Assembly: GCA_029259155.1 (NCBI GenBank)
Contig: JAPDJI010000004.1
Location: 18,339 to 82,338, forward strand
From: Candidatus Methanomethylicia archaeon
GTDB taxonomy: Archaea > Thermoproteota > Methanomethylicia > Nezhaarchaeales > B40-G2
Direction: 5' to 3'
Length of the DNA stretch: 64,000 nt
The notes beneath the pieces were generated by a model. It had not been told where the DNA came from. It saw nothing but the letters and a program-made list of their open reading frames with translations, and searched no databases. A program made the position numbers and the translations under genes. Shown one piece after another: positions 3,567 to 53,970 of this stretch; positions within the stretch are counted from its first letter, which is position 1; each line of letters starts with the position of its first letter.

Positions 3567-3639
3567 TAGCTTAAGCTACTATGCAGCGTTACGCTGAGGC
3601 AAGCTTAATTTCTTCGCCTCTATCAAGGCGGTGAGGTAG

Positions 3640-3725
3640 CGGGCCCGGCGGGATTTGAACCCGCGACCACTCGGTTAAGAGCCGAGCGCTTTCGGCTTTC
3701 CTCTACCGTGCTAAGCTACGGGCCC
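3640..3725 (-). tRNA. tRNA-Lys (anticodon CUU) with a roughly 12-nt non-canonical intron in the D-arm region
   Basis: Minus-strand read: GGGCCCG TA GCTT AGCACGGTA GAG[GAAAGCCGAAAG]C G CTCGG CTCTTAA CCGAG TGGTC GCGGG TTCAAAT CCCGC CGGGCCC G. Removing the bracketed insert restores the D-stem GCTT/GAGC. Anticodon loop is CU-CUU-AA. Confidence 0.7.
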
Positions 3726-4847: not shown

Positions 4848-5537
4848 TCAATACAGAGCCTTGTCTGGGAAGCCGTATCTCCCTCTTAGAGGGACAAAGA
4901 CACATCCTCCTAGACTTCTCATCTTAACTTCCCCTTCCTCATCTTTCTCCACGAGGACTAGATCCTGGTAAAAGCCTGGGCCACCCACAGGTATGACAAG
5001 TCTACCTTTAGGCTTCAGCTGGTCTATGAGCGGTTTAGGCACATCGGGTGAGGCGGCAGTTACTATTATGGCATCGTATGGTTTAGCTGGTTCATAGCCG
5101 AGGCTTCCGTCGCCATGAATCACTGTGACTCGATCGGCATAGCCAAGTCGCTTTAGGTTCTCTTCAGCCATCTTGGCCAGCTCCTCTATGAGCTCCACGG
5201 TGTAGACGTGTCCTTTGATCTCTGAGTCTTCTGGGGCTACCATCTCGGCGTAAACAGCAGCCATATAGCCGCAGCCACCGCCAACCTCCAATACTTTGTC
5301 TCCTGGCTTCAATCGGACAGCTTCTATTAGCCAAGCGGTCATGTGTAAGGCGCTGGTGGTCTGTCCATAGCCTATGGGCAGAGGACTATCTATATAGGCG
5401 TGCCTTCTATGCTCAGGAGGGAGAAATTCCTCTCTGGGAACCTTTAACATGGCTTTGGCTATTGCTTGACTTTTAATTACCCCTGCCTCTATCAGCCTCT
5501 TAATGGCTGCTTCGCGCTCCTTCCCAGTACTCGACAA
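4848..5537 (-). CDS. pcm: protein-L-isoaspartate O-methyltransferase
   Basis: 229 aa. Motifs VLEVGGGCGYMAAV, ELIEELA and IIVTAA are typical of PIMT. Confidence 0.85.
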   Translation of the reverse strand: MSSTGKEREAAIKRLIEAGVIKSQAIAKAMLKVPREEFLPPEHRRHAYIDSPLPIGYGQTTSALHMTAWLIEAVRLKPGDKVLEVGGGCGYMAAVYAEMVAPEDSEIKGHVYTVELIEELAKMAEENLKRLGYADRVTVIHGDGSLGYEPAKPYDAIIVTAASPDVPKPLIDQLKPKGRLVIPVGGPGFYQDLVLVEKDEEGEVKMRSLGGCVFVPLRGRYGFPDKALY

Positions 5538-5586
5538 CCTTTCTCCCTGAGAGTGCTTTTAATAAGGGGTTATTTGAGCTTAGGGA

Positions 5587-6021
5587 TTGATGAGGACCGC
5601 TGAAGTTTTTAAGGCAAGGGGGCATCCTAACGTTAAGGCTACTCACAGATCAACGTTAGAGATCACTAAAGACCCTTATTTGTCTCCTAGAGGTGACTGT
5701 ATCGTAGCCATAGCTGCGGAGAAGGCAGCTCGGGACTTATCGTTAGAGTTTAAAAAGTTGGCTTCGAGGGAGGGGAGCGTTATTACTTTGATGATTGAGG
5801 CTGAGGGGTTATCTGACGTAGTGAGGGGCTATGGCTCAGCTATGATGGTTTTTAACGACGAAAGAAGCATTGTGTTCAGGAAGAGCAGCTATATATGCGG
5901 AAGGACGGTGATGGTGAAGGCTGATAAGGCTGCAGCCGATCTAGACAGAAGGTTAGTGGAGCTTCTAAAAGATCCCTCCGTGGAGGTTATGGTTATAATC
6001 GAGGCAGAGTCTGTAGGTTAA
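5587..6021 (+). CDS. DUF371-family conserved archaeal protein
   Basis: 144 aa. The pattern [10 protein letters not shown]...GDCI...AA resembles the DUF371 family. Confidence 0.45.
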
Positions 6022-7055
6022 AACTTAAAGTAGGCCTCTAAAGTAACCCTACCTTTCCCTGCCTTAAACGCTTTAATCGCTCTCTCCACCGCATTCATTA
6101 CCCTATCCTCTGAGAAATCGTGTTCTCTACAGAGGAACCTTACAACTTCTCCTTTATCCGGTTCTCTCCACTCTAGCTTATAATCGGAGGTTACGTCAGG
6201 GCTCAAGAAAAGTTTCTTTATTTCCTTGGGATCAAAAGGAAACTCTACGTCTTTCAGCGTGGAAAGCACGTTTTCAAGCGAGCCTTGTTCCTTTACTAGT
6301 TTAAGGGCTTTCTTAGGCCCTATCCCTTTAACACCCTCAGGGTTATAGTCAGTGCCTACAAGTATACCTACGTCTACCAATTGCTCTCTTGTTATCTCTA
6401 GCTCTTTGAGTAGCTGCTCTAGCTCTATGAGTTCAGGTTTAACCTCTATGTAAACATCCTTCCTGGGTAGCTTCCTCCTCCCCGTGATCGTTACGTTTCT
6501 CACCAATCTTGGGGCCCCAAACAGGAGAGAGTCATAGTCCTGGCTGGCTGCCGCGTATACGTCTCCCTTAGCAGCCATGTAAGCTGCTTGGGCTTCTCCT
6601 TCTGACGGTGCTTGAATCCAAGGTACGCCCATGGTGTCTAGGAGCTTCTTGGCATCTTCAACCATCTCCTCGGTTAATTTGCCTGTTTGTTGAGCATAAG
6701 TTTTAGCTGCTTTAAGGTCTCCTCGAGCTAAGGCTTCTTCATATTTGCGCTCAGCTTCCTCCTTATGCATCTTCCTCCTTAGCACTTCTAGCTCTTTGAT
6801 CTCGGGAGGCTTACCGTCGAAGACGTACACAGGCTTAATGCCCATCTCCAACAGGTTAACGGTCCTATAAAATAAGCCTGATAGGTGGCTGGTTATTCTT
6901 CCTTGACTATCCATGAGGAGGGTGCCATCGGGCTGACGTATAATAGCCAAGAACTGGTGCAACGTATTGTAGGCATCTATAGCTATAGCTCTACCGTTAA
7001 GGTCTTGAAGAGTGATCTCTCTCTTAGGTACAAGATCCTTTAAATCTACGCCCAA
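6018..7055 (-). CDS. fen: flap endonuclease 1
   Basis: 345 aa. Has the XPG N and I domains ([37 protein letters not shown]) and a C-terminal PIP-like tail. Confidence 0.9.
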
Positions 7056-7058
7056 GTT

Positions 7059-7298
7059 TTAGCCCTCTTCAGGTTTCTTTATTAAGGTCACCGATTTTAG
7101 GTTCTTCTTTATCGTGGAGACTCTTACCACATCACTAAGCTCCAATTTAAGTAAAGCTTTAAGGACCTCTCTCTGCGAAACATCGCCGAGCATGGCTTTA
7201 AGCATGGTGTAGAGCTCTTTATCCTTCGCTACCCCTCCTCTCCGCCTAAGTAGATCTACTATTATTTCCTCGAGAGGAATGGACATCCATGCAGACAA
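7059..7298 (-). CDS. hypothetical small helical protein
   Basis: 79-aa ORF lying between fen and cdc48 on the same strand. Confidence 0.35.
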   Translation of the reverse strand: MSAWMSIPLEEIIVDLLRRRGGVAKDKELYTMLKAMLGDVSQREVLKALLKLELSDVVRVSTIKKNLKSVTLIKKPEEG

Positions 7299-7309
7299 GG
7301 TTGGGCCCT

Positions 7310-9535
<2,226 letters not shown>

Positions 9536-25277: not shown

Positions 25278-25427
25278 CCCCGGGTAGCTCAGAGGTAGAG
25301 CGCTCGGCTGTAGGTGTTGGCCGGCGGGTGAGGGCGTAAATGCGCGCGGTGACCCCTGCTCAGCCGAGCGGTAACCGAGAGCTGTGAAGGCCGGGAATGG
25401 TCGAGGGTTCAACTCCCTCCCCGGGGA
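25278..25427 (+). tRNA. tRNA-Tyr (anticodon GUA) with two introns: 60 nt at 37/38 and about 18 nt in the variable region
   Basis: Exons: CCCCGGG TA GCTC AGAGGTA GAGC G CTCGG CU-GUA-G ^[60 nt] A CCGAG A ^[GCTGTGAAGGCCGGGAAT] GGTC GAGGG TTCAACT CCCTC CCCGGGG A. The spliced product is a standard 72-nt cloverleaf. Confidence 0.7.
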
Positions 25428-41539: not shown

Positions 41540-41929
41540 TTGTCGTCGCTTGAAAATGTTAAAGCGGTCATGATGGTAGATAAGGTGGAGCCTAGCGAGG
41601 TTGCAGGAGTATTTGTTGTATACTTTAAGGGACTTGAAGGCTCCCCGTTGGTAGAAATGAAGTTGGAATTACCTAGACAACTACTCATGTTTAAGAAAGG
41701 AGACAAAGTAACGTTGGAATTAGCTGAATCTCCTATTTCTTGGGGAGAAAAGTCTGATTTGCATTTAAGAGCTAGGATCTTCGGGTTAAAACCTATAGAG
41801 GGTGTTAGTATTCTCTATGCATCAGCTGGCGGCCTTCAGCTTAGGCTGTCGTTCAAAGAAAGTTCTCAGCGTTTCCAATCTTTAAGTAAGGTATATATTG
41901 CTTTCAAGATAATGAAGGAAACAGGGTAA
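41540..41929 (+). CDS. hypothetical protein (possible OB-fold; Rpo8-like not excluded)
   Basis: 129-aa ORF. No diagnostic motif. Confidence 0.3.
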   Translation: MSSLENVKAVMMVDKVEPSEVAGVFVVYFKGLEGSPLVEMKLELPRQLLMFKKGDKVTLELAESPISWGEKSDLHLRARIFGLKPIEGVSILYASAGGLQLRLSFKESSQRFQSLSKVYIAFKIMKETG

Positions 41930-42085
41930 CTCACTTTCGCTCTACTCTCTCACCTTCGCAAACACGTCCACTTTATTGACCCTCACCGGCGCCTATCAAG
42001 TATCTTCTTACCTTCCCAGAGGAAGCTACCTTACCATAAAGGTTAATTAAAACCCCTCTTCAGCGCCACCGAGGTTGAAGAAGCT

Positions 42086-43078
42086 ATGGACACTTGCAAT
42101 GAATGTGGAGGTCTCTTGATATGTAACGACCGGAAGGAATGGGTTTGTAGTAGTTGCGGCCTCGTTTACACCTATGAAGACTACACGCCACCCATATTTG
42201 TTCTTCAAAATGAGGATAGGGGAGGGGTTGAATCAAGGCAGTACGTCTCACCTCTACGCCGTTTAGGGCTTCAAGCACTTGGAAGCTATGTAGGATATGA
42301 AAACTCCTTAGGCTTACTGGATCCTTTAGGTCATCCTTTAAATCCAAGGCTGAGAGAGGCTTTCATTAAACTTAAAAGGCTCCATGATTTTCAGCCAAGA
42401 TCCGGTAGGAGCGGATCCATCGTTCAGGGCGAGAGGGCTCTCTTAAGGGCCTGTTCTCAGCTCAACGTTACAAACGCTGTAGTAAGAAGAGCCCTTCTCC
42501 TTTATAGGAAAGCCGTTAAAACTCAGGCTTGTTCTGGGCTCAGCCGCCCTTCACTGGCCGCTGCTTGTCTTTTCTTAGCCACGGGTACGTGGAAAGATAG
42601 TCGACCAGCTGGCGCTAAAAAGCTCCTTACCACCTTTAATGCTTTAAGGTATAGAGTGACCTTCAACAGTTTGTCAAAGGCTGTAGTGGCTGTGAGGAAA
42701 GCTTTAGGCATAAAAGTAGCTCCTCGAAGGCACCTAGACTATGTACCGTACATAGTAGAAGAATTACTATCTCGTGAAGAGATCCTAGGGAGGTTCGAAG
42801 AGGAGCGCGTTAAGCTCGGGGAATACAAGGTCAAGTTGATCCACTTATCACAACGGCTACTTCAGAAGCTTGATAGAAAACTTCTTGGAGGTAGAGCTCC
42901 ACATATACTTGCAGCAGCTGCAATATATGCGGCTTCTAGGCTGCTATCTCGTCAACTTAACTTAAAGAACTTCATTACTCAACGTGTTCTAAGTGAAGTG
43001 ATAGGGGTTGCGGAGTTTTCCATTAGGGACCATTACTCTAAACTCTTCAAACAGCTTTCCGGAAGGGGGTATGGTTGA
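42086..43078 (+). CDS. tfb: divergent transcription factor B (TFIIB) paralog
   Basis: Has an N-terminal Zn ribbon (CNECGG...CSSCG) and two cyclin repeats (ALLLYRKAV...SRPSLAAACLFLA; HILAAAAIYAAS...TQRVLSEVIGVAEFSIRDHY). The B-reader block (GPEWRxF) is not recognisable. An upstream TTAATTAAA element and a GAGGTTG RBS are present. Confidence 0.7.
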   Translation: MDTCNECGGLLICNDRKEWVCSSCGLVYTYEDYTPPIFVLQNEDRGGVESRQYVSPLRRLGLQALGSYVGYENSLGLLDPLGHPLNPRLREAFIKLKRLHDFQPRSGRSGSIVQGERALLRACSQLNVTNAVVRRALLLYRKAVKTQACSGLSRPSLAAACLFLATGTWKDSRPAGAKKLLTTFNALRYRVTFNSLSKAVVAVRKALGIKVAPRRHLDYVPYIVEELLSREEILGRFEEERVKLGEYKVKLIHLSQRLLQKLDRKLLGGRAPHILAAAAIYAASRLLSRQLNLKNFITQRVLSEVIGVAEFSIRDHYSKLFKQLSGRGYG

Positions 43079-43482
43079 AGTATTCTGCGAAGGAAGTAGC
43101 TGAAGCTATGGCCTCTGAAGGCCTTGAACCCGCCCTCATAAAAAGGGTCTTAATTAACTTAGGTTTCTCTAATGACGAAGCTGTCAGGGCGGTGGCTAGA
43201 GCATGCATAATTATGGGTAGAAAAATTGAACAAGACCGTTCGCAGGATTTTCCTCAATTAGCTGAACTGGTCAAGAAATATGATACTACGTTGTCCTCTT
43301 TAACTAGGGACGTAGAGGAGATTAAGGCGTCATTGACCCTACCGACGGTAAAAGACGTTGAAACTATTGAGCGTAGAGTATCGGTGCTCGAGAGTAAGGT
43401 CAACGCTTTGATCGATTTGCTCTCTGATTACGCCCCTATGATCATCGAAAAAGTCAGGGCTCGGGGGCAGTATGATACGTGA
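43075..43482 (+). CDS. hypothetical helical protein in the pilus-like operon
   Basis: 135 aa. The start overlaps the tfb stop. Confidence 0.4.
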   Translation: MKYSAKEVAEAMASEGLEPALIKRVLINLGFSNDEAVRAVARACIIMGRKIEQDRSQDFPQLAELVKKYDTTLSSLTRDVEEIKASLTLPTVKDVETIERRVSVLESKVNALIDLLSDYAPMIIEKVRARGQYDT

Positions 43483-45632
43483 AGTGTAACGGGAGATGTA
43501 CCGCGTTATTCAAGAGACATGGACATAAACTGGTCATTAAGTGTCCATTAAACTGCTTAGGCGCTGATCTAGCTGATAATCCACTTTGTCGAGCCAAGAC
43601 CATTTATTGGCTCAGTAGGGCGAAGGTAAATGAACTTGTAATTAAGACGTCTTTCCTCACTAAGCTCTATGAGGGAAGAACTGTTAAGCTCCTATCTGAC
43701 TATGCTCGACGGCTCGTTAAGGCAAGAGCTGAAGTATTAGATACGAAGCTCTTAACAAGTTGTCAAGGCGCTCTCGCCTGTTTTGAAGCTAAGAAAGGTT
43801 TTCTCGTGGATCTGTTCTCTCTCCATCCATCTCCAGGCCTTCTCTATACTGATCCCTTAACCGCCTTGCTAAGGGTTGATGAAGAGCTCAAAAAATTATC
43901 GATGTCTCCAGCTCAAGGAAAAGGATGTAAAGAATGTGTCGATGAATATACTGCAGCTCTCAAAAAATTAAGAGGTAGACTTAGATCCTCGGACTTGATC
44001 AAGGAAGGACTTAAGTTAGTTCCCCGTTCTCCTTCCACTACTTTGGTTTATACCGCTTTATTGAAGCCTTCTAGGACTTTAATTTCTCCCTACTCTCGAG
44101 AGAAGGCCCCTTCTTCTATGGCTGTGCGTGGAATTCTCCTTGATGAATACTTGGTACCGCCCTTTAAAATAAAGATCTTTCACCTGAATACACTTGAATC
44201 TCTTTATGTGGTTTCATTAACTCTTAATCCTTGGGAACGCTTAGTGGTCAACGAAGTAGTTAAGAGACTTAACATGTCTTCTACCTATATTCACGGCCTT
44301 GGAAAAAATAGGCTCTCTTTTTTAATTGATGTTAGGAGGCGCGATGTGGAGAACGTGCTAGAGGCACTTTGGTTTGAAGGTTTCGAGCAGACCAAGAATT
44401 CCAGAGCCGTGACTGAAGCTTCGGTGTTTAAGTCTCTTGGTCTTCTCAAACTCGCTCCCTTTCTTCTCGATGAAATGGTTGAAGAGTTCTTCTTGGACAA
44501 GCCTTCCTCCCATATTTACCTGATACATTCAAAGTGGGGCAGGTGTAGGTCCAACGTAATACTTAACGAACGTGATGTAAACAGGATAATTACGCACCTC
44601 AAGATCGATAGTGGCCTTCCACTAGATTATGAGAATCCTTCATTAAAATGCGAACTCATAACTGAGGCTTTCCATGTGAGAGCTTCAGTTGACATTCCTC
44701 CCCTCGCTGTTGATGGGCCTACGCTGGACTTTAGGAAATTGAGAAAGAAGGTTTGGACCCTACCTGACCTCGTAAATAATGGAACTTTAACTCCTGAAGC
44801 TGCTGCTTACCTACTTTTCTGTCTTTTTAGGCGTAGAAACATCACGGTTGTCGGGGAACCAAACACTGGTAAGACGACTCTCATTAACGCCCTAGACCTC
44901 TGTTCCCCTCCTCACTGGAGGAAAATCTACGTCGAAGACGTAACTGAAAGTATTCCGCAGTTAAAATTAGGTAAGCACCAGGTAAGGCTTAAGGTATCTC
45001 CTTTCGAAAGTCGGAGGCAGACTTTCCTTAAGAGCCTTGAAGTACTACGTCTTCTCCACAGATCGCCTGACTTCGTGATACTCTCTGAAATCCAAACTCC
45101 TGAACACTCTAAAGCCCTATTCCAAGCTTTAACTTCTGGCTTACGTGGTCTTCAGACGTGTCACGCCTCAACGCTTGAAGGGCTTTTAAGAAGATGGATT
45201 CTCCACCATGGTATTTCCCCCATCAACCTCTTGGACCTTGACCTCCTCGTTCAGATGAAAACTGTCCTCATCGATGGGAGAGAGGTTAGAAGGATGGTGA
45301 GGCTTAGTGAAGTAAAGGTTTCTGAAGAAGTTTCAGAGGTTTCTGAGGCACTGGCCCCAGTTAAACTGGTAGATGTGTTTACCTGGATCCCTAACTTAGG
45401 TTTAGTCAGGCAGGTTGATCTGTATGAAACACCCACTTTATCCAAGATAAAGGAGCTAGAGTTTCTTTCGAGGAAAAGGTTCGAGGAGGAAATAAGAGCC
45501 TATCAGGAACTTCTACTGAGACTTTCTTCTAGCTCAATTGACCCAGCAACTTGTTCAACCAAGCTTAGCCAACTGTACTTCAGGTATGTAGCCGGACTCG
45601 AGGAGGCTTCAACCATTGTTGAAGACATTTAG
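43479..45632 (+). CDS. type II/IV secretion-system ATPase (VirB11/TadA/FlaI family) with a roughly 400-aa Cys-containing N-terminal extension
   Basis: Has Walker A VGEPNTGKTTLINAL, an Asp box KIYVEDVTE, Walker B PDFVILSEIQTPE, and a His box LQTCHASTLEGLLRR. Confidence 0.7.
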   Translation: MKCNGRCTALFKRHGHKLVIKCPLNCLGADLADNPLCRAKTIYWLSRAKVNELVIKTSFLTKLYEGRTVKLLSDYARRLVKARAEVLDTKLLTSCQGALACFEAKKGFLVDLFSLHPSPGLLYTDPLTALLRVDEELKKLSMSPAQGKGCKECVDEYTAALKKLRGRLRSSDLIKEGLKLVPRSPSTTLVYTALLKPSRTLISPYSREKAPSSMAVRGILLDEYLVPPFKIKIFHLNTLESLYVVSLTLNPWERLVVNEVVKRLNMSSTYIHGLGKNRLSFLIDVRRRDVENVLEALWFEGFEQTKNSRAVTEASVFKSLGLLKLAPFLLDEMVEEFFLDKPSSHIYLIHSKWGRCRSNVILNERDVNRIITHLKIDSGLPLDYENPSLKCELITEAFHVRASVDIPPLAVDGPTLDFRKLRKKVWTLPDLVNNGTLTPEAAAYLLFCLFRRRNITVVGEPNTGKTTLINALDLCSPPHWRKIYVEDVTESIPQLKLGKHQVRLKVSPFESRRQTFLKSLEVLRLLHRSPDFVILSEIQTPEHSKALFQALTSGLRGLQTCHASTLEGLLRRWILHHGISPINLLDLDLLVQMKTVLIDGREVRRMVRLSEVKVSEEVSEVSEALAPVKLVDVFTWIPNLGLVRQVDLYETPTLSKIKELEFLSRKRFEEEIRAYQELLLRLSSSSIDPATCSTKLSQLYFRYVAGLEEASTIVEDI

Positions 45633-46398
45633 TAGTAAAGTTTATGCAAAGTTCACAAGCTCGTGGCTCCACTTATTGAAAAGTACGGTTCCAGCCCTAA
45701 GTGAATGGGGGATTAGGGAAGAAGAGGTGTATAGAGCTTTAAGCCCACTTATCAAGTTCTCGCTTTTATTCACCCTTTTACCTTTAATGGTACTTTGGCC
45801 TTTTGACGCTATCCTGGGGCTAACGTTATCGCTTGCTCTATTCTACCCCTCCATCAAGCTTCCTTCCCTATACGTGGTCAATAAGATTTTAAGGCCTACG
45901 CTCATTGCTGAGAGGTATTCTCCCTTCATAATTAATGAACTCATAATAACTTTCACGGCTTCAGGATCCCTTCATAGGGCAGTGACCTTTGTAGCTGAGG
46001 GAGATTATCCTCATATATCTCAATGTTTCAAGGAAATACTAAGGAGAACCGAGGAAGGAATAGACCTAGAACGTTTGCTTCTCCAGTACGCTAAGAACGC
46101 TCCACCTACCATAGGAGAGTTTCTATTACACTTTATTAAGGCTCCTGTGGAACATAGGTTTTCTGCCTCGGAACTTCAACATAAAGTATGGGAGGTGTAC
46201 CTCGAAGATATCAAGAGGCTTAGGCTGAACATTCTTGTTCTCTTTTCTATGGGCTTCCTGTTGCCTGTCCCTATCATTGCAGCTTTGTTAATAAGAGGAA
46301 CAAGCTACCTAGTACCTCTGATAGTACCTCTGCATACATTACTGCTTTCTCTCACCGTGAAAACCTCACTTAGAGGGAGGGTCATTCCATTAGGATGA
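45616..46398 (+). CDS. TadB/TadC (T2SSF)-like membrane platform protein, half-size
   Basis: 260 aa. The topology is TM-TM, then a roughly 110-aa cytosolic helical domain, then TM. Confidence 0.5.
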   Translation: MLKTFSSKVYAKFTSSWLHLLKSTVPALSEWGIREEEVYRALSPLIKFSLLFTLLPLMVLWPFDAILGLTLSLALFYPSIKLPSLYVVNKILRPTLIAERYSPFIINELIITFTASGSLHRAVTFVAEGDYPHISQCFKEILRRTEEGIDLERLLLQYAKNAPPTIGEFLLHFIKAPVEHRFSASELQHKVWEVYLEDIKRLRLNILVLFSMGFLLPVPIIAALLIRGTSYLVPLIVPLHTLLLSLTVKTSLRGRVIPLG

Positions 46399-47189
46399 GA
46401 CCTGTCGATAAAGTAGCCCTTTTCTTTTCTTTTTTAGCGTCTGTATGCGTCTTCATGGCGATATATGGATATGTTCATGGTGCAGCTGTAGCCATCGTCG
46501 TGGCTACCACTCTCCAACCCTTCCTCTATCTTTTCCTCTGTCTTCTACACCGTACGGAGAGGATTATGTCAAGGGCCGAAGACCTATCTGAGTTAGAGTT
46601 TTTCATGTCAATGGTTGCTGCGAAGCTTCGATTAGGCTTATCGATTGAGGCTGCTTTCCACGAAGCATGCCTTGAATATCGAGGTAGACTCAAAGAACTA
46701 TTGGAAAATGTGGACAGAAAGTTAATGGAGGGCTTGCCATTAAGCCTCGCTCTTTCAGGTTTATCAAGGTCTCTTAGGTCTCGTGAGGCCCGAAGGTTGT
46801 TGATGTTAGCACCTAGGCTTACGGAGTACAGCTCGAAGAAGGCTGGGGTTAACCTCTATCGTTTAGTAACTATGTTAAGGAGAAACAGGAAACTAAAGGA
46901 TAGACTATGGAAGGCTTTAAGAGCTGAAGACCTTAAGGTAAAGCTGCTTTCAATAATCTACGCTGCCGTGCTTGCTTCACTTGCCCATTTAGCTAGGTTA
47001 CTAGGAGAACTGGTAGGTTTTTCTCGACCACTAGATATGCTTTTTACTTTTCTACCGCTTGCCTTTATGTCCATTGTAACCCCCTTCTACGCTACCTTAA
47101 TAGTTCAAGGCGAAAAGCCTCTCCTTAGGTCCATTACGTCTCTCTCGGTTTTTCTCGCTTTCTACGTTCTGCTATATGCGATTGTGTAG
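46395..47189 (+). CDS. second TadB/TadC (T2SSF)-like membrane platform protein
   Basis: 264 aa with the same TM / cytosolic / TM architecture. The start overlaps the upstream stop. Confidence 0.5.
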   Translation: MRPVDKVALFFSFLASVCVFMAIYGYVHGAAVAIVVATTLQPFLYLFLCLLHRTERIMSRAEDLSELEFFMSMVAAKLRLGLSIEAAFHEACLEYRGRLKELLENVDRKLMEGLPLSLALSGLSRSLRSREARRLLMLAPRLTEYSSKKAGVNLYRLVTMLRRNRKLKDRLWKALRAEDLKVKLLSIIYAAVLASLAHLARLLGELVGFSRPLDMLFTFLPLAFMSIVTPFYATLIVQGEKPLLRSITSLSVFLAFYVLLYAIV

Positions 47190-47237
47190 GCGCAGGGGTT
47201 ATATATTCTTCATAGTGAAGGAGGGCGGTGTGCGAGG

Positions 47238-47483
47238 ATGGTATTTAGATTAGTTAAGAGGATTCTGAAGAATCGTACTGCTTCTCCTCTCGTCGAAGAA
47301 GGCATATTGCTGAGCTTAACCGTGGTATCGCTGGCTGTGGTCTTGTCCTTGATAGTAAGTCTTTTTGGAGGTATTGATAATGTCATGGGAGGGGCTAATG
47401 AAGCCATGAACAGTTTCTTCTCATCTGCTCTAAGAAGCCTTGACGACCTAGTTCGACAACTTAACAGTCTCTTTACTGGCTAG
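47238..47483 (+). CDS. Flp/type IV pilin-like protein (class III signal peptide)
   Basis: MVFRLVKRILKNRTA|SPLVEEGILLSLTVVSLAVVLSLIVSLF has a basic leader and then a hydrophobic helix. The E-E-G-I-L-L block resembles the Flp 'EYGLI' motif. Confidence 0.5.
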   Translation: MVFRLVKRILKNRTASPLVEEGILLSLTVVSLAVVLSLIVSLFGGIDNVMGGANEAMNSFFSSALRSLDDLVRQLNSLFTG

Positions 47484-47519
47484 TTTCACATAAAAATCGA
47501 TAGACGGTCAGAGGTCTTC

Positions 47520-48848
47520 ATGTTCAACCTAAACGAACTCATATTAATGAACGTCCTACCTCCTGTCCTCTTAAGACTGAGAGATCCTAATACTAAATCT
47601 CCCTATCATATCTTTGTTTTCGGAATGACGGGAAGCGGTAAGACCAATAGCGTGAAACACATAATATCATCCAAGAGAATCAAGCGCTCCCTATTGATTT
47701 TAGATTGGGCCGGTGAATATGGTGACATCAACCTATTATCTCTAACTCCTAGCGATCTATCTATGGAGAGCTTAGAGCCTACTCAGATCGTTGATGCGTT
47801 TAGTGCAGCTTACCAGTTAACTAGACCTCAAGAAGCATTTATGCTTAGATGCCTTGGCAGTTCATGTAGAATAAGCGAGTTAATAGATCGTATTAGCCAT
47901 GCTCCGTTAAGGAGCGCTAGCGAAGCTGAACTGAGGGAAGCGTTACTTCGGAGACTTGAACCTCTTCAAAGCTTAATGTTATTTGAAGGGGGTCAAGATC
48001 TTGCTGCTCTACTTGAAGGAAAGGTAAGATTAGACCTGAGCTCTCTTCCTTTTGAGGCTAGGAGGCTAGCGGTAAATATCATACTTAGGTTGATCTACAA
48101 CCGAGTGACGTCTTGTGGTAGTCATGGACTTATATTGGTACTTGAAGAGGCGGAAAACGTAATTCCCCCAAGAAGGTTCGAAGACCCTCCTCAAGGAGGA
48201 GAAGTAATAATAAACGAGTTGAGGAAGTGGGGTGTTTCGGTAATAGCTATTGCTCAGTTACCAAGTCAAGTAAGCATGTTTTCTTTTAGAAACTGCGAAT
48301 ACATAATATTGCATCGAGTGCAGTTAACTGCATTGGAGGCAGACTGGCTTGGCTTAACTCCTAACGATGTTATCAAGCTAGCCAAGCTACCCACTGGGCA
48401 AGCTCTCCTAATTCATAGGGGGTTAAAGAGGTGGATCAAGATTGCGCCTTTTAAGGCTTCATCTAGCCGAATTGAGGGGAACCGCCTGCTTACCTATCAT
48501 AAATTTTCTTCTTCTAAAACTGATGAAGTAGGTCAGGTTTCTGTCAGAGCGCCTAAGTCTGACGATGACAGGTTATCAATCATTGAGGGAAAACTTGAGC
48601 TCTTACACGAGAAACTAGACGAGGTAACAGGCCACTTCAAGCTCTTTGGCGAGCTTATTCACCTCCTCCCATACCTCGAAGCTTCAAAGAAGGGCGACTA
48701 CATAGTTATTGGCTCTAAAAGATACCTCAGCCCTGAGGAAGAACAGGTAGTAATTCGCCTCTTAAGTACTGCTGGAATCGTAGATAGCGCCTTGATTAAT
48801 GGGAGGAGGTACTGGGTGGTCAAGCCTAAGCATAGCGGGGCTTGTTAA
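47520..48848 (+). CDS. DUF87/HerA/VirB4-like P-loop ATPase
   Basis: Has Walker A FGMTGSGKTNS, Walker B LILVLEEAENV, and the arginine-finger-type block LRKWGVSVIAIAQLPSQV. Confidence 0.6.
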   Translation: MFNLNELILMNVLPPVLLRLRDPNTKSPYHIFVFGMTGSGKTNSVKHIISSKRIKRSLLILDWAGEYGDINLLSLTPSDLSMESLEPTQIVDAFSAAYQLTRPQEAFMLRCLGSSCRISELIDRISHAPLRSASEAELREALLRRLEPLQSLMLFEGGQDLAALLEGKVRLDLSSLPFEARRLAVNIILRLIYNRVTSCGSHGLILVLEEAENVIPPRRFEDPPQGGEVIINELRKWGVSVIAIAQLPSQVSMFSFRNCEYIILHRVQLTALEADWLGLTPNDVIKLAKLPTGQALLIHRGLKRWIKIAPFKASSSRIEGNRLLTYHKFSSSKTDEVGQVSVRAPKSDDDRLSIIEGKLELLHEKLDEVTGHFKLFGELIHLLPYLEASKKGDYIVIGSKRYLSPEEEQVVIRLLSTAGIVDSALINGRRYWVVKPKHSGAC

Positions 48849-50653
48849 ATGTGTACTCGGAGTTCTTCCCCTATGATAACTTGCGTCCTGGCCAGAAAGA
48901 GCTTATTGATGCTGTACGGATGGCTATCATTAAGGGAGAGAACTTAGCGATCAATGCTCCTAGTGGTTTTGGTAAAACCATATCAACATTAGCCGCCGCC
49001 CTATCAGTGAGGTCTAGGATTTTATGGTTTACACGTACTCATAGGGAGGCCGAGAGGGTAGTTGAAGAAGCTCGCCTCTTAGCCTCTAAAAAAGGGGTTT
49101 CTCTAACTGCATTAGCACTTCAGTCAAGGGCTAGCTTATGCCCTATGAGTCAAGGTTTAACCCCTGAGGAAGCTTCAGTACTTTGTAAAGAACGCAGAAG
49201 CAGCTGTTTGTTTTACCGTAATTTCCTATCTTTCTTTGAGCCTCCGCCCTCCTTACTTTTAACTGCTAGCGAACTGTTCTCTTACTATATTCGTTCCTCC
49301 ATTTGCCCTTACTATGCTCAATTAAGCCTATGTGATGCGGTCGACATAGTGGCAGCGAGCTTCCCCTTCCTAGTCAATCCTTTTGCTAGAAGAATGTTAA
49401 GTTTCAGTCCTGTGGTCGTCGTGGTGATAGATGAGGTTCACGGCATGCCCGATGCTATAGCAGTACATCAGAGCTCTGAGGTAACTGCTAGGTCTCTTCG
49501 CCAGTCATTAGAAGAAGCCAGGCAATTAAATATAGGTAAGGCTTTAACCTCCTTCATAGAGTCTACCATCTCGCTCCTAGAGGACATAAAGGTTGAGGAA
49601 CTACGTAAACCATTAGAAGTGATCGAGCAACTTCAAGGAATTACAAACTATTCCCTCCACGTCATTACTGAATCCCTCTTATATTGGGGCGATGAATATA
49701 GAAGGGCTTTAGCAAGGAAAGGTGAAAGGCCTAGAAGTTCTCTCTATAATTTAGGCTATTTTCTCTCTAGGCTTTTATCTCACAGTGAAGGACAGGTCGT
49801 ATCTTTGGGGCAGGGACAAGCTAAGCTTCTCTGCCTAGACACTAAGCTATCTATGCCTACTGTCAGGTCAACTATCCTTATGAGCGGTACCATGGACCCC
49901 ATCCTCCTAGAGGAACTTGGGGTAAAAGCGTCCTTCATCGATCTTTCAAAGTACGCTTCCTATCGATGCAAAGTCTTCTTACTGGAAGATGTAACAAGCA
50001 GATTCAAGGAAAGGATGAAGAAGATGTATGAGGCTTATGCCAAGTACATAGAGCTTTTAGCATCCCTCCCCGTCAATATGGCCGTCTTTTTTCCAAGTTA
50101 TGAAGTACTAGCAAGAATACGTGAGGAGTTGAAGAGGATCAAGAAACCTATCTTCTCCGAGGAGGAGAAAATGCAAAGCTTGGAGCATGAAGCTATGTTG
50201 AAGGAGTTTAAATCACATGGAGGTAAAGGAGGAGCCATATACTTAGGGGTCTGTGGTGGTAGGGCTAGTGAAGGAGTAGATTTTCCAGGAAAGGAGCTTG
50301 ACGTAGTTTTCATAGCTGGTATACCCTTTGAGGAGCCCTCTCAGTTAGTTGAAGCCAAGCTGAGTTATTATGCTGAAAAACATGGAGAGAAAGGTTATGT
50401 GCTTGCGTATATTGTACCTGCTACGCGTAAGGTTGCCCAAGCGGTTGGAAGAGCTTTTAGAGGGCCTGGAGATACAGGGATCGTTGTCCTAGGAGATAAG
50501 CGTTTCAAGAATTTAATGAAATTTCTACCTCAATGGTTGGGAAGGTTTGAGACCATTAAATGGAGTACAAGATCCTCCATGCTTATAAAGGCGGCTTCTA
50601 TGTTAGGTATAGAGGTATCAGGGAGGGAGACTAACGGAGTGGAAGGAGGATAA
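48842..50653 (+). CDS. xpd: XPD/Rad3-family 5'-3' DNA helicase with Fe-S domain
   Basis: Has FPYDNLRPGQKELIDAV, Walker A APSGFGKT, a four-Cys Fe-S cluster insert (CPMSQG...C...C...CPYY), a DEVH box and C-terminal helicase motifs. Confidence 0.75.
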   Translation: MLNVYSEFFPYDNLRPGQKELIDAVRMAIIKGENLAINAPSGFGKTISTLAAALSVRSRILWFTRTHREAERVVEEARLLASKKGVSLTALALQSRASLCPMSQGLTPEEASVLCKERRSSCLFYRNFLSFFEPPPSLLLTASELFSYYIRSSICPYYAQLSLCDAVDIVAASFPFLVNPFARRMLSFSPVVVVVIDEVHGMPDAIAVHQSSEVTARSLRQSLEEARQLNIGKALTSFIESTISLLEDIKVEELRKPLEVIEQLQGITNYSLHVITESLLYWGDEYRRALARKGERPRSSLYNLGYFLSRLLSHSEGQVVSLGQGQAKLLCLDTKLSMPTVRSTILMSGTMDPILLEELGVKASFIDLSKYASYRCKVFLLEDVTSRFKERMKKMYEAYAKYIELLASLPVNMAVFFPSYEVLARIREELKRIKKPIFSEEEKMQSLEHEAMLKEFKSHGGKGGAIYLGVCGGRASEGVDFPGKELDVVFIAGIPFEEPSQLVEAKLSYYAEKHGEKGYVLAYIVPATRKVAQAVGRAFRGPGDTGIVVLGDKRFKNLMKFLPQWLGRFETIKWSTRSSMLIKAASMLGIEVSGRETNGVEGG

Positions 50654-50663
50654 GCCTCGAGCT

Positions 50664-51224
50664 ATTGTTATTACCGGAACACCTGGGACAGGTAAAACCT
50701 CATTGGGTAAGGGGCTGGCTGAGGCCTTCTCTTTGATGCACGTGGATGTTCCTCTGCTAGTTGAAAAAGAAGGATTGTATAGTGATGTTGATCGCGATAG
50801 GGGATCAAAAGTTGTATCGCTCAGTAAGCTAAGACGCAGGCTACACGGCTTGCTCATGGAGACTGGCGGGCTTGTAGCATCTTCTCACGTTCCTGACGTC
50901 CTACCTAGTAGGGATGTAGACTACGTCCTCGTATTGAGAATTGACCCGAGGGCTCTCCTACACCGTTTACTAAGTAGAGGTTGGCCTGAGGGTAAAGTGA
51001 AGGAGAATGTAGCTTCTGAAGCGTTGGGTATCTGTCTAGCTCAGGCCCTTGACTACTATGGTGAGGTCAAGGTCTACGAGCTCGACGTGACAAATAAGTC
51101 GTTAGAAGACGTATTGGAGGAGGCCACTAAGATGATTAAAGGCGAGGTTAAGAAGACTACTATTGACTGGTTGGCTAAAGCTGAGGAAGATGAAGATCTT
51201 GCTAGCTTATTGGCTAGTTGTTAA
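50664..51224 (+). CDS. Fap7/adenylate kinase 6-like nucleoside kinase; the start codon is uncertain
   Basis: The frame is open from 50613. It encodes (A)[16 protein letters not shown]... (P-loop), [24 protein letters not shown] and ENVASEA. There is no ATG, GTG or TTG upstream of the P-loop; ATT at 50664 is the best candidate. The ORF-track TTG at 50703 would delete the P-loop. Confidence 0.55.
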
Positions 51225-53055: not shown

Positions 53056-53970
53056 TTGATGATGATATGTACCTCCTCTGACCTGGTGATGGATGTGAAG
53101 GTTAAGCTAAGGTTTATGGCAGTATTAAAACCTCTGGCCAAAAACCCTGTCTACGAACTTGAGATCGAAGACGGGGCTACTCTAAGCGTCCTTTTAAAGA
53201 AGCTTATCCAAGAGGAGCGTAAAGAGCTTCTAGCAAGGCTTCTGGATCCCTCAGAGGCCTCTCTACAATCTGACATATTGGTGCTCATAAATGGAATTGA
53301 AATAAGTGCTCTCGAAGGATTAAACACTAAGTTAAGGGATGGTGATGAAGTCGTGTTCTTGCCTACGGTACATGGAGGAAGCTTGGAGTTTGTTGCTCCT
53401 TGGTGGGATGAATTTTACTTTAAGATTCTTAGGCTGGCTGATTTGATCGAGGCTTCAGGCTTTAAACCTGACATCATAGTGGGAGTTGCTAGAGGAGGTT
53501 GGATAGTAGCTAGATTACTCTCCGATTTTCTTGACAACCCTAACGTCGTCAACGTTAAGGTGGAATTTTACCGCGGGGTAGCCGAGACCATGGAGGAACC
53601 TAAAATTTCTCAGCCTCTATCAGCCTCAGTTAAAGGATGCAAGGTGCTTATAGCGGATGATGTAGCTGATACGGGTAAGTCGCTTGAAGTTGTAAAGAGA
53701 CATGTGGAGGAGAAGGGGGCCTCAGAGGTCAAGATAGCTACGGTCTACTATAAGCCGTGGTCTATCATTAAGCCAGACTTTTATGTTGATGAAACAACCT
53801 GTTGGGTGATTTTTCCACACGAAGTGAAGGAAACCATGACTAAGCTCCTAACTAGGTGGTTAAGCGAAGGGATAAGTGTTGAAGAGGCTAAAGAAAAACT
53901 GCTTAAAAGCGGAATCAAACTCGAGGTGCTTGAAGCCCTTCTCCCCAAAGTATTAAGTAAGCTTAGCTGA
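53056..53970 (+). CDS. MoaD/ThiS-like ubiquitin-fold domain fused to a type I purine phosphoribosyltransferase
   Basis: The N-terminal roughly 95 aa have a beta-grasp pattern ending ...DGDEVVFLPTVHGG and continue in-frame into a PRTase with the PRPP motif VLIADDVADTGKS. The probable start is the Met at 53089. Confidence 0.55.
   Translation: MMMICTSSDLVMDVKVKLRFMAVLKPLAKNPVYELEIEDGATLSVLLKKLIQEERKELLARLLDPSEASLQSDILVLINGIEISALEGLNTKLRDGDEVVFLPTVHGGSLEFVAPWWDEFYFKILRLADLIEASGFKPDIIVGVARGGWIVARLLSDFLDNPNVVNVKVEFYRGVAETMEEPKISQPLSASVKGCKVLIADDVADTGKSLEVVKRHVEEKGASEVKIATVYYKPWSIIKPDFYVDETTCWVIFPHEVKETMTKLLTRWLSEGISVEEAKEKLLKSGIKLEVLEALLPKVLSKLS

Follow-up and report, generated by a model that had tools for sequence, protein, structure and literature searches.

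A nine-gene archaeal array as a probable juxtaposition of a TFB-linked Tad/Flp-type filament module and a HerA-like ATPase/XPD helicase pair

For Thermoproteales subclade 4D, Makarova, Koonin and Albers described in 2016 an operon encoding a TFIIB homologue, RPB8, a Cys-rich ATPase and a membrane protein, in which the RPB8 and TFIIB-homologue genes are likewise adjacent, and proposed a transcription-related role for the gene set (PMC4858521). In Sulfolobales, CedD is essential to DNA import (PMC11823120, PMC11868833) and, according to the literature, TFB3, a TFB paralog, controls both Ups and Ced.

The array lies at positions 42086-51224 of the 64,000-nucleotide stretch of DNA that was analysed (the window), which comes from a heat-loving, uncultured archaeon. 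The nearest named relatives of its proteins belong to Candidatus Nezhaarchaeota, not to the Thermofilaceae as a sequence-only reading of this DNA had assumed, and the proteins correspond to "Thermoprotei archaeon" MAG entries. Counting ORFs of at least 80 aa gave nine, all on the + strand; the sequence-only reading was correct about co-direction but had counted ten genes, and it left the 135-aa ORF unnamed. The features, including the upstream RNA polymerase gene, are as follows.

41540-41929, + strand: RpoG/Rpo8, RNA polymerase subunit (Pfam RNA_pol_RpbG, E 1.2e-5)
42086-43078, + strand, 330 aa: TFBl, divergent full-length TFB/TFIIB paralog (Pfam TFIIB, NCBIfam TFB)
43075-43482, + strand, 135 aa: s135, small soluble helical/coiled-coil protein; conserved gene just 5′ of the ATPase gene
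43479-45632, + strand, 717 aa: T2SSE-family (FlaI/TadA/VirB11-like) assembly ATPase (Pfam T2SSE 45.8 bits, above cut-off)
45616-46398, + strand, 260 aa: TadB-like half-size platform protein, one T2SSF domain, ~3-4 TM segments
46395-47189, + strand, 264 aa: TadC-like half-size platform protein, one T2SSF domain, ~5 TM segments
47190-47237, + strand: spacer before flp, with TATA-like TTATATATT at 47199
47238-47483, + strand, 81 aa: Flp-type prepilin with a basic leader and one hydrophobic helix
47520-48848, + strand, 442 aa: HerA-fold P-loop ATPase (DUF87, clade B; Pfam DUF87 47.9 bits, above cut-off)
48842-50653, + strand, 603 aa: XPD/Rad3 Fe-S 5′-3′ helicase, constant partner of the clade-B HerA-like ATPase
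50664-51224, + strand: Fap7-like adenylate kinase/NTPase (AAA_18 38.6 bits); as an ORF, 50703-51224, 173 aa

Successive junctions measure -4, -4, -17, -4, +48, +36, -7 and +49 nt, and the majority are thus overlaps or gaps of less than 50 nt, as had been claimed. Nine co-directional genes packed this tightly would, on that observation alone, fit one or two long transcripts. The TATA-like run at 47199 is suggestive of a separate promoter for the pilin gene, and only suggestive because A/T runs of 7 or more letters occur frequently across the window (6.7 per kb). Comparable runs are found at 42043, 5′ of TFBl, and at 47490, 5′ of the HerA-like gene.

TFBl combines a Zn ribbon and a pair of cyclin folds with a C-terminal HTH, and its family profile can be aligned with human TFIIB over residues 17-322. 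It scores 54.3 bits on Pfam TFIIB, which exceeds the cut-off, compared with 117-169 bits for canonical TFBs, and 71.8 bits on the NCBIfam TFB model, for which the cut-off is 384. C4, C7, C21 and C24 are invariant among homologues, which identifies the ATG at 42086, as opposed to the start of the 320-aa public call, as the correct one.

Of the genes that follow, s135 matches no Pfam or NCBIfam family at cut-off and has no TM segment by hydropathy; its homologues are located immediately 5′ of the ATPase gene in the window clade and in loci L086, L087, L101, L104, L107, L108 and L110. The T2SSE ATPase scores 84 bits with the NCBIfam FlaI model and 75 bits with TadA, each far under cut-off. A set of 29 homologues shows no variation in Walker A, the acidic boxes or the His box, and the N-terminal consensus also contains conserved Cys. 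The N-terminal extension of this ATPase had been put at ~400 aa; it spans ~200-320 aa, with the FlaI model aligning from residue 320. In an AF2 model of residues 1-324 (pLDDT 83, pTM 0.81), residues 1-195 form an extra part that is Cys-rich plus helical; the model gave no specific fold match. This N-extension is a family-specific trait of the ATPase.

Both platform proteins score below the Pfam T2SSF cut-off of 25.2 bits (TadB-like, 21.1 bits, E 3.1e-4; TadC-like, 18.9 bits, E 1.6e-3), yet T2SSF is the sole family to recur among 27 orthologues, 9 of which match it (best E 3.3e-7). The position of the TadB-like gene 3′ of the ATPase gene and the synteny of the TadC-like gene are conserved, and in Loki-type loci the two halves are joined as a single ~510-aa protein. 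The prepilin has one TM segment by hydropathy and a predicted cleavage site, KNRTA↓SPLVEEG, with Glu at +5. The motif [KR]x[GA]↓[SAG][PQN]L[VIL]E[EY][GA]LL is kept in 26 homologues, and the classic G↓NLVEY form is seen in Loki-type copies. The 81-aa family has no Pfam match, and the putative pilin assignment is motif-based, with no curated model behind it. No prepilin peptidase is encoded within the 64-kb window; relatives have, next to the cluster, a divergent operon that encodes an A24 prepilin peptidase along with 4-5 pilin-like genes. The TFB paralog, filament machinery, Flp-like pilin, HerA-type ATPase and XPD named in the sequence-only reading are all present. The profile matches it anticipated were obtained for TFIIB, T2SSE, DUF87, DEAD_2 and Helicase_C_2; its two T2SSF calls, although below cut-off, have family-level support, and its pilin call has none from Pfam.

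The resemblance to subclade 4D suggests that the filament could have been lost, with the ATPase and membrane proteins now serving transcription alongside TFBl and RpoG, for example in membrane-linked control of the initiation factor. The genes reported there, for RPB8, a TFIIB homologue, a membrane protein and an ATPase whose N-domain is Cys-rich (PMC4858521), form the same combination, the RpoG-TFBl-ATPase order is conserved, and the family-specific N-domain of the ATPase has a confidently predicted fold. However, the family described here differs from 4D in retaining two T2SSF-type platform proteins and an Flp-type prepilin whose cleavage motif is conserved; moreover, the ATPase has kept its catalytic motifs, and peptidase and pilin-like genes accompany the cluster in relatives. 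We regard a purely transcriptional role as quite unlikely.

Synteny was followed across 93 loci using iterated HMMs, with L173 (Conexivisphaerales) and L174 (Promethearchaeota) scanned separately (~95 in all); de-replication at 70% identity gave 45 clusters. Loci with the Tad-like cluster come from Nezhaarchaeota, Conexivisphaerales and, among the Asgard groups, Odin, Loki, Sif and Jord, and the core of ATPase, TadB/C and Flp was found in nearly all clusters. Close Nezha relatives keep the entire gene order, flanks included, and hence cannot discriminate between readings. In more distant relatives the array comes apart. Odinarchaeum (L087) has RpoG and TFBl followed by ATPase, TadB, TadC and Flp, with DUF87, XPD and Fap7 absent, and Jordarchaeales L088 has the ATPase and a membrane protein only. 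Another Nezhaarchaeales genome (L089) lacks DUF87 and XPD. The order in L173 is TFBl, a minus-strand block, ATPase, TadB, TadC, Flp, a clade-A DUF87 gene and then Fap7 on the minus strand.

TFBl lies within 10 kb of the ATPase gene in ~32 of the 45 clusters and S17e in ~25 of 45, so distance-based TFBl linkage in part reflects an ancient conserved block. TFBl might belong with RpoG and have no functional link to the filament genes, which would simply sit in a slowly decaying block of Alba, KH, RpoG, TFBl, Fap7, histone, S17e and Urm1. RpoG is directly 5′ of TFBl in the window clade and in L087 (Odin), L089, L108, L110, L161 and L168, and flank conservation extends from Nezha to Odin. S17e linkage is nearly as frequent as that of TFBl, which in Loki-type loci adjoins S17e ~8 kb away and in L089 is inverted, with three genes between. 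Against such independence, TFBl is co-directional with and no more than 500 nt 5′ of the s135/ATPase genes, overlapping or abutting them, in 12 de-replicated clusters, several of them without RpoG detected beside it (L096, L098, L102, L103, L106, L130). In L097, L099 and L100 it is convergent and 3′ of TadC. Coupling of this kind occurs in no housekeeping neighbour, and the Thermoproteales association was reported independently (PMC4858521). The chance that TFBl and the filament genes are unconnected is, in our estimation, small.

The HerA-like protein has no N-terminal domain, and its C-terminus comprises a long helix and a small alpha/beta domain. By hydropathy it lacks the 1-2 N-terminal TM helices of its relatives. 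Foldseek searches with its AF2 model (pLDDT 82.5) returned HerA throughout as top matches (HerA-NurA, 3e-15). In a DUF87 NJ tree, proteins linked to the filament genes (clade A) group apart from those linked to XPD (clade B), and the window protein falls in clade B. Its partner matches the Thermoplasma and Sulfolobus XPD structures over full length and has strong profile scores (Helicase_C_2, E 1.4e-37; DEAD_2, E 5.6e-18; TIGR00604, 221 bits), and the four Fe-S cysteines are kept in 8 of 8 DUF87-linked XPDs. The HerA-like and XPD genes overlap and are translationally coupled, and the same overlapping pair stands alone, without filament genes, in L090, L091 and L092. Apart from these pairs XPD is confined to the close Nezha clade and is absent from every other filament locus. 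DUF87 genes directly follow flp in ~14 clusters or loci; membrane-anchored CedD-like ATPases (180-247 bits) are directly 3′ of flp in ~9 other lineages, and in sister lineages the CedD-like ATPase after flp is of a different clade and comes without XPD. Linkage in distant relatives, as predicted by the sequence-only reading, therefore holds for TFB with the filament genes (12 clusters) and for the filament genes with CedD/HerA-like ATPases, and fails for XPD and Fap7.

These results bear on the proposal that the whole array is a self-contained apparatus for DNA uptake or exchange, possibly damage-inducible, in which the TFB paralog would be the switch, the Flp filament would contact or capture DNA, the HerA/CedD-like ATPase would pump it and XPD would process it. 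The close co-directional packing of the nine genes is consistent with this, as are the control of Ups and Ced by TFB3, the CedD-like ATPases that follow flp elsewhere, and the fact that, among NCBIfam models, the HerA-like protein matches CedD best (E 9e-22), CedD being needed for DNA import in Sulfolobales. That match, however, covers the ATPase part alone, at 77 bits against a cut-off of 600, and unlike CedD, with its N-domain and TM anchor, the window protein has neither and belongs to the XPD-linked clade. Its structural neighbours are HerA, not VirB4/VirD4. No NCBIfam Ced model scored above cut-off among the array proteins (CedB, 11.6 bits), in a model set that may omit CedA and a VirB2-like pilin. 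Finally, the constant partner of the HerA-like clade is XPD, in a pair that also occurs by itself, the other filament loci are devoid of XPD, and Fap7 is convergent in most, which argues against a single ten-gene unit. We consider the self-contained apparatus unlikely, though with some real chance of being correct.

It is highly improbable that the array belongs to an integrated mobile element or, as also suggested, constitutes a minimal conjugative T4SS. The pairing of VirB11-like and HerA/VirB4-superfamily ATPases is superficially T4SS-like, the T2SSE ATPase gives weak matches to the conjugal-transfer ATPase models TrbB and VirB11, and the HerA-like protein gives only marginal ones to VirB4- and VirD4-like models. 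The pilin, however, is Flp-type and not VirB2-type, the fold of the HerA-like protein is that of HerA, and GC content is uniform. Neither flank resembles an element boundary: in a Pfam scan, ORFs between 38.7 and 54.6 kb were housekeeping or regulatory and none had a recombinase domain, and the nearest tRNA is 2.3 kb away, behind conserved housekeeping genes. Locus and flanks are syntenic across phyla, and no plasmid-borne or att-flanked copy of the cluster was seen in relatives.

The Fap7 kinase call was upheld by AAA_18 and by a Fap7-like kinase model (NCBIfam PRK03839, 80 bits, with the alignment starting at profile position 18). The P-loop is encoded 5′ of position 50703, where the first canonical start lies, and the 14 in-frame codons upstream (50661-50702) include no ATG, GTG or TTG, with ATT at 50664. 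In most relatives the Fap7 gene lies on the other strand and converges with the cluster (L096, L105, L107-L110, L112, L115, L130, L153, L155 and L173), and it co-travels with histone and S17e in an old housekeeping block. It is a housekeeping neighbour and not a system component.

We conclude that the array is probably a lineage-specific juxtaposition of conserved modules in an old housekeeping neighbourhood, and not one dedicated ten-gene machine. The filament module is apparently a chromosomal Tad/Flp-type type IV system, and the conservation of its housekeeping context points to vertical inheritance. In this system, an A24 prepilin peptidase encoded elsewhere in the genome would first cut the basic leader at A↓SPLVEE, and the T2SSE ATPase, as a hexamer acting on the two half-size T2SSF proteins (a TadB/TadC-like platform), would polymerise the 81-aa Flp-type pilin, with s135 as a conserved cytoplasmic accessory. 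TFBl, judging by its operonic coupling, is most likely an initiation factor devoted to the filament regulon, to which it would direct RNA polymerase, and thus a putative filament regulator. The soluble HerA-like ring translocase would probably feed DNA to, or receive it from, XPD, which would unwind it 5′-3′, in the manner of HerA with a partner enzyme; HerA-NurA serves as the model for this presumed mode of working.

The arrangement had been thought undescribed. The TFB/RpoG/Cys-rich-ATPase link is known since 2016 from Thermoproteales subclade 4D (PMC4858521), while three elements seem to be new: the Flp pilin, the CedD-like partner and the HerA-XPD pair. As both DUF87 clades occupy the post-flp slot, clade B could be the local orthologue of the filament-linked ATPase, in which case the HerA-like gene and XPD would functionally be part of the filament system here. 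An ancestral link between filament and DNA translocase is plausible, since a membrane-anchored CedD-like ATPase of the sister clade fills that slot in sister lineages, and a role of the array in DNA uptake is possible.

Positions 42086-51224 of the window contain nine ORFs of 80 aa or more, all on the + strand, where ten had been counted in the sequence-only reading:

42086-43078, + strand, TFB-like protein (TFBl), 330 aa
43075-43482, + strand, small protein (s135), 135 aa, no family
43479-45632, + strand, T2SSE ATPase, 717 aa
45616-46398, + strand, membrane protein (TadB-like), 260 aa
46395-47189, + strand, membrane protein (TadC-like), 264 aa
47238-47483, + strand, single-TM-helix protein (flp), 81 aa
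47520-48848, + strand, DUF87 protein (HerA-like), 442 aa
48842-50653, + strand, XPD, 603 aa
50703-51224, + strand, Fap7-like protein, 173 aa

The tight co-directional packing reported for the array was reproduced, with junctions of -4, -4, -17, -4, +48, +36, -7 and +49 nt. TATA-like A/T runs are present in all three spacers, but since such runs occur at 6.7 per kb in the window they are only suggestive of promoters. Searches with Pfam and NCBIfam models recovered the expected TFIIB, T2SSE, DUF87 and DEAD_2/Helicase_C_2 families, and curated models also back the Fap7-like kinase; the two anticipated T2SSF matches fell under cut-off, and the 81-aa candidate pilin had no curated-model support. 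The array is flanked by housekeeping genes, with an Lrp-family regulator (minus strand), Alba, a KH protein and RpoG on the 5′ side and a histone (minus strand), S17e, a radical-SAM protein (minus strand), a Urm1-PRTase fusion and Cgi121 on the 3′ side. GC content is uniform, and a mobile-element reading of the array was rejected because of composition, flanks and synteny. The proteins match a "Thermoprotei archaeon" MAG, and the closest named relatives are Candidatus Nezhaarchaeota, not Thermofilaceae as had been guessed. The initial description of the locus was thus essentially right, with corrections to the ORF count, the taxon and the size of the ATPase extension.

Three further features of the window were recorded. 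A 304-aa ORF at 53056-53970 fuses a Urm1/ThiS-like domain to a phosphoribosyltransferase domain; the two parts are separate genes in the related locus L086, and a stand-alone Urm1/ThiS gene of ~100 aa is found in L087 (Odinarchaeum) and L089 (Nezhaarchaeales). An Rfam tRNA spans 150 nt at 25278-25427, probably with a long intron, and ARAGORN reports an unusual tRNA at 3639-3725 whose anticodon has 4 nt and for which the Rfam score is weak (31.5 bits).

Scanning metagenomes with the N2 domain of the ATPase, which is specific to the family, added 80 related loci. Iterated HMMs for 18 window genes were mapped onto 93 loci, and de-replication at 70% ATPase identity reduced the 90 ATPase-bearing loci to 45 clusters. 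Two loci, L173 (Conexivisphaerales) and L174 (Promethearchaeota), were fetched later and scanned apart from the 93. A contig scan with the full ATPase alignment, keyed on Walker A, returned chiefly bacterial CpaF loci, and only L004-L006 were useful.

Conservation of gene order, proposed earlier as a check on the array, held among close relatives and failed among distant ones. In three Nezhaarchaeota loci with ATPase identities of 42-54%, the whole order is kept; because this includes the flanks, these loci cannot separate function from inheritance. Farther away the array is split. L089, from another Nezhaarchaeales genome, encodes the ATPase together with two small membrane proteins and flp, with Fap7 on the opposite strand, RpoG-TFBl inverted and 3-4 kb from the ATPase cluster, and neither DUF87 nor XPD at the locus. 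The Odinarchaeum locus (L087) contains RpoG-TFBl, one minus-strand gene, a ParA-like gene, a small gene, the ATPase, a T2SSF protein, a membrane protein and flp, with S17e and Urm1 close by; DUF87, XPD and Fap7 are absent from the locus. A Jordarchaeales locus retains the ATPase and one membrane protein only. The best reading of the array is that of a four-part composite, in which a conserved Flp-type filament cluster with its own TFB paralog is followed by a HerA-like/XPD pair that is conserved independently, and then by Fap7.

The filament cluster has a core of ATPase, TadB-like, TadC-like and small TM proteins that is present in nearly all loci; in a large Loki-type group, L174 among its members, a single fused protein (~510 aa) takes the place of the two membrane proteins. 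The window ATPase scores 75 bits on the TadA model TIGR03819 (cut-off 373) and 84 bits on the FlaI model, and its next matches outside the family include bacterial CpaF (~30% identity) and archaeal FlaI-annotated ATPases. All of its catalytic motifs are intact. The N-terminal extension, put at about 400 aa in the sequence-only reading, is smaller: the extra part comprises the first ~195 residues and consists of a Cys-rich element, with conserved cysteines in the N-terminal consensus, and a helical bundle. Structure prediction, suggested earlier for this extension, gave a confident model (pLDDT 83, pTM 0.81), for which a structure search found no specific relative. The TadB- and TadC-like proteins (260 and 264 aa) are both polytopic and match T2SSF with E values of 3e-4 and 1.6e-3, both under cut-off; T2SSF is the sole recurrent Pfam family among their orthologues, 9 of 27 of which match it (best E 3.3e-7).

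The small-protein family carries a Flp-type signature, composed of a basic leader, the motif [GA]|[SAG][PQN]L[VIL]E[EY][GA]LL and a hydrophobic helix. In the window copy the sequence is KNRTA|SPLVEEG, with Glu at +5, and the motif is kept in 26 homologues; the Loki-type copies read G|NLVEY, the classic form. No A24 prepilin peptidase or pilin-like block was found within the 64-kb window. In five related loci (L105, L107, L108, L110 and L112) TFBl and the ATPase are separated by a divergent block on the minus strand, and L173 has a similar block of small minus-strand genes in this position. The L107 block (5072-8272, minus strand) encodes an A24 prepilin peptidase (E 6e-11), pilin-like proteins and one ~300-aa protein. 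Homologues of the peptidase occur in L101, L105 and L112, and reading of the sequences identified four or five small proteins with pilin-like N-termini in the L107, L108 and L112 blocks. The window clade is without this minor-pilin block, and there TFBl abuts the ATPase operon. We concluded that the module is a Tad/Flp-like type IV filament system and not a relic, and that its products probably assemble a filament.

Two observations concern the Loki-type group. A 138-148-aa protein is encoded between the ATPase and the fused TadBC in L117, L123 (11190-11624), L131, L134, L174 (12204-12620) and others; it is leaderless and starts with a mature-pilin-like N-terminus (MTNLLEKALLTGFG...). Separate Flp genes with G|NLVEY lie upstream in L118, L126, L143, L154, L159 and L170, those of L126 and L159 being on the opposite strand.

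Resemblance to bacterial Tad/Flp (type IVc) systems extends to the split TadB- and TadC-like platform proteins, to the very short Flp-type pilin with predicted cleavage after G/A and, in relatives, to neighbouring genes for an A24 peptidase and for several minor subunits that resemble pilins. In Odinarchaeum the gene of a ParA/CbiA-family (PF01656) ATPase stands just ahead of the cluster, which may be a further likeness. Unlike Tad/Flp systems, the array has an ATPase that is no nearer to TadA/CpaF than to FlaI (75 versus 84 bits, both far under cut-off) and that bears a unique N-domain; secretin and outer-membrane parts are missing, most pilin copies have EE for EY, and the cluster is linked to a TFB paralog, a feature with no bacterial counterpart.

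TFBl keeps the whole TFIIB architecture of Zn ribbon, both cyclin folds and C-terminal HTH. The ribbon cysteines C4, C7, C21 and C24 do not vary among 17 family members (Pfam Zn_Ribbon_TF, only 13.5 bits), two stretches match Pfam TFIIB (54.3 bits), and the family profile aligns with human TFIIB over residues 29-292, including TQKxxxxxxGVAxxTIR. Since the first CxxC is invariant, the start was assigned to ATG 42086 and not to that of the public call. The latter (320 aa in L001) begins 30 nt late (window 42086-42115) and loses this CxxC. TFBl was not scored as an orthodox archaeal TFB by NCBIfam PRK00423 (71.8 bits, cut-off 384). In an exhaustive search, canonical TFBs scored 113-136 bits with the TFBl profile; on Pfam TFIIB they reached 117-169 bits, versus 54 bits for the window protein, and TFBl therefore represents a distinct, divergent paralog family; the earlier identification of a full-length but divergent TFB is upheld. 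Long TFB fusion hits, considered as "Rosetta stones", were canonical TFBs with uninformative extensions and were of use as calibration only.

TFBl lies within 10 kb of the ATPase in ~32 of the 45 clusters. Its placement takes at least five forms: overlapping or abutting, upstream of ATPase/s135; 1.3-4 kb upstream, beyond the minor-pilin block; convergent, directly after TadC; ~8 kb downstream, beside S17e; and inverted, upstream. This proximity partly reflects an old conserved block, as S17e, used as a control, is within 10 kb of the ATPase in ~25 of 45 clusters. Co-directional coupling at 500 nt or less distinguishes the two genes, as it was observed for TFBl in 12 clusters and never for S17e. 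TFBl is thus probably a dedicated regulator of the filament cluster.

The HerA-like gene has few homologues, which come from Nezhaarchaeota, Methanomethylicota-like MAGs and Conexivisphaerales. Its product had been described as a DUF87/HerA/VirB4-type ATPase. DUF87 matched above cut-off, and an AF2 model (pLDDT 82.5) gave 9x1m, 4d2i and 8xau as top Foldseek matches (E 3e-15 to 1e-13), the first structural matches being HerA-NurA, Sulfolobus HerA, anti-phage HerAs and DndH; VirB4/VirD4 were not among the top 50. Walker A is at residues 35-42, which leaves no room for a HAS-barrel N-domain. The NCBIfam CedD model matches at 77.4 bits (cut-off 600), over CedD positions 223-520 only. A neighbor-joining tree of the DUF87 ATPase core contains two clades. 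Members of the filament-linked clade have an N-domain of 220-340 aa and score 180-247 bits on the CedD model, and those of the XPD-linked clade, which includes the window protein, score 72-99 bits. The majority of proteins in either clade carry one or two N-terminal TM helices; none was detected in the window protein or its closest relatives.

In L090 (10001-13313), L091 (10001-13307) and L092 (10001-13160), a membrane-anchored HerA-like gene overlaps a downstream XPD gene. These stand-alone pairs occupy three unrelated contexts in Nezhaarchaeales and Methanomethylicota-like contigs, with no filament genes beside them. In L006, L105, L107-L110, L112, L115, L127, L147, L153 and L173, the gene next to flp encodes a longer DUF87 protein and is itself followed by a convergent Fap7, XPD being absent after DUF87. 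A related CedD-like ATPase, usually membrane-anchored, fills the slot after flp in sister lineages.

The window XPD, which adjoins the HerA-like gene, is orthodox. Its similarity to archaeal XPD structures is full-length; it scores 221 bits on TIGR00604 (just under the cut-off of 247) and matches DEAD_2 and Helicase_C_2, and the four Fe-S cysteines are kept in 8 of 8 DUF87-linked copies; its designation as an XPD/Rad3 Fe-S helicase was correct. A literature search found no published description of a conserved HerA-like/XPD gene pair, the products of which may cooperate. PADLOC returned generic HerA models for the array. Among its models, "typeIV_DinG, CAS-IV-A associated" gave a full-length match to XPD (48842-50653) at 293 bits, stronger than the 164 bits obtained with solved archaeal XPDs; as no cas genes were present in the ORFs scanned at 38.7-54.6 kb, this match was not read as defence.

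The flp and HerA-like genes are in the same frame, with one stop codon and no second in-frame stop between them, in the window (47481-47520), L107, L112, L115, L147 and L153, and in the last four the HerA-like ATG directly follows the flp stop. This layout is consistent with translational coupling. Stop-codon read-through fusing flp to the HerA-like protein was rejected: in-frame placement across a single TAG, seen in several loci, was observed in ~3 of 9 lineages versus ~0.2 per lineage expected by chance, and was attributed to chance.

Among HerA-partner systems, we compared HerA-NurA end resection, HerA-Sir2 and HerA-DUF4297 defence, and DndH. The window protein shares with them the HerA-fold ATPase core (Foldseek top matches 3e-15 to 1e-10) and a gene translationally coupled to that of a DNA-acting partner enzyme. 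The partner differs, being an XPD Fe-S helicase and neither a nuclease nor Sir2. Unlike HerA, the window protein is missing the N-terminal domain ahead of the ATPase core and has a C-terminal coiled coil and small domain, and its relatives are membrane-anchored.

Fap7, the last gene of the array, is an ordinary conserved neighbour. It is convergent with the cluster in most relatives, and co-transcription is therefore impossible there. In the window, the P-loop that such kinases carry at the N-terminus (GxPGxGK[ST]) is encoded in frame but 5′ of the first ATG/GTG/TTG (ORF start 50703), and the protein would include it only with a non-canonical start. The frame is open from 50613, and 50613-50702 holds non-canonical candidate starts only, such as ATT 50664; Fap7 of relatives begins just ahead of the P-loop. 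Either a non-canonical codon is used, or translation reinitiates after the XPD stop at 50651-50653, or the gene is defective.

The closest published arrangement is subclade 4D of Thermoproteales, in which an ATPase with a small Cys-rich N-domain (arCOG05558), a TFIIB homologue (arCOG05559) and RPB8 form one predicted operon with a single unrecognisable membrane protein of 4-5 TM (arCOG05557/13890) and no pilin, and for which a transcription-related role was proposed (Makarova, Koonin and Albers 2016, PMC4858521). A literature search found no further paper citing these arCOGs. The array had been presented as undescribed; no description of the HerA-like/XPD operon was found, but one exists of the combination of TFIIB, RPB8 and Cys-rich ATPase (PMC4858521). 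Window and 4D, the latter by its published description, have in common a T2SSE ATPase whose additional N-terminal domain contains many conserved cysteines, a TFIIB homologue encoded within the predicted ATPase operon with RPB8/RpoG directly adjacent (RpoG-TFBl-s135-ATPase in the window), and a chromosomal location. Unlike 4D, the window has two recognisable half-size T2SSF proteins and a Flp-type prepilin after the ATPase, an ATPase that keeps its C-terminal region, and an added small coiled-coil gene and HerA-like ATPase; TFBl has two cyclin folds, against the one reported for the 4D homologue, and the window family reaches Asgard archaea and Conexivisphaerales. Pyrobaculum/Thermoproteus 4D proteins were not recovered by the ATPase search, the TFBl profile search, a search of 1.84 billion representatives or cluster names, and the Caldivirga locus L007 has an unrelated gene context.

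A second comparison is with Sulfolobales, where Ups pili and the Ced system (CedA, A1, A2, B and D) are controlled by TFB3. TFB3 is truncated, whereas TFBl is full length. The likenesses are a type IV filament with a HerA/FtsK-superfamily ATPase whose best match is CedD, a TFB paralog as likely regulator and, in sister lineages, membrane-anchored CedD-like proteins right after flp. The filament and ATPase genes are adjacent in the window; Ups and Ced are separate loci. Unlike CedD, the window ATPase has neither N-domain nor membrane anchor and belongs to the XPD-linked clade. CedD is essential for DNA import in Sulfolobales (2025), and some orthologues are without a TM domain (PMC11823120, PMC11868833). 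No array protein scored above cut-off on the NCBIfam Ced models (CedB, 11.6 bits), the two membrane proteins had no NCBIfam match, and no VirB2-like pilin gene turned up among the family matches of the array, the pilin being of the Flp type.

These data lend only partial support to the proposal that the array is a self-contained DNA-uptake apparatus. The CedD-like ATPase after flp in sister lineages speaks for it, and for this reason a DNA-translocation role of the filament system stays alive as a minority view; the separate conservation of the HerA-like/XPD pair and the ordinary character of Fap7 speak against a self-contained unit. In its broadest form, the proposal would be of a conserved chromosomal machine for DNA uptake or exchange, from Asgard archaea to Thermoproteota, in which a Flp filament with a Cys-rich T2SSE ATPase is coupled, physically and in function, to a CedD/HerA-type translocase, re-partnered with XPD in Nezhaarchaeota and switched on by its own TFB paralog. 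We consider this joint reading, under which the array would be a competence system built of Tad-like and not VirB-like parts, unlikely. The composite reading is preferred, and the finding as a whole constitutes a comparative-genomic lead well supported by gene content, motifs, folds and synteny patterns.

If a Flp-type cluster common to Asgard and TACK archaea does have TFBl as its dedicated initiation factor, the enigmatic subclade 4D would be explained as the reduced relative of a true pilus, and TFBl would be a clear example from nature of a TFB paralog that works in the manner of an alternative sigma factor. The HerA-like/XPD pair, possibly a new pairing, would add a helicase to the partner enzymes of HerA rings. 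The CedD-like ATPase encoded after flp provides a concrete lead to possible DNA uptake or exchange in archaea without Ups/Ced.
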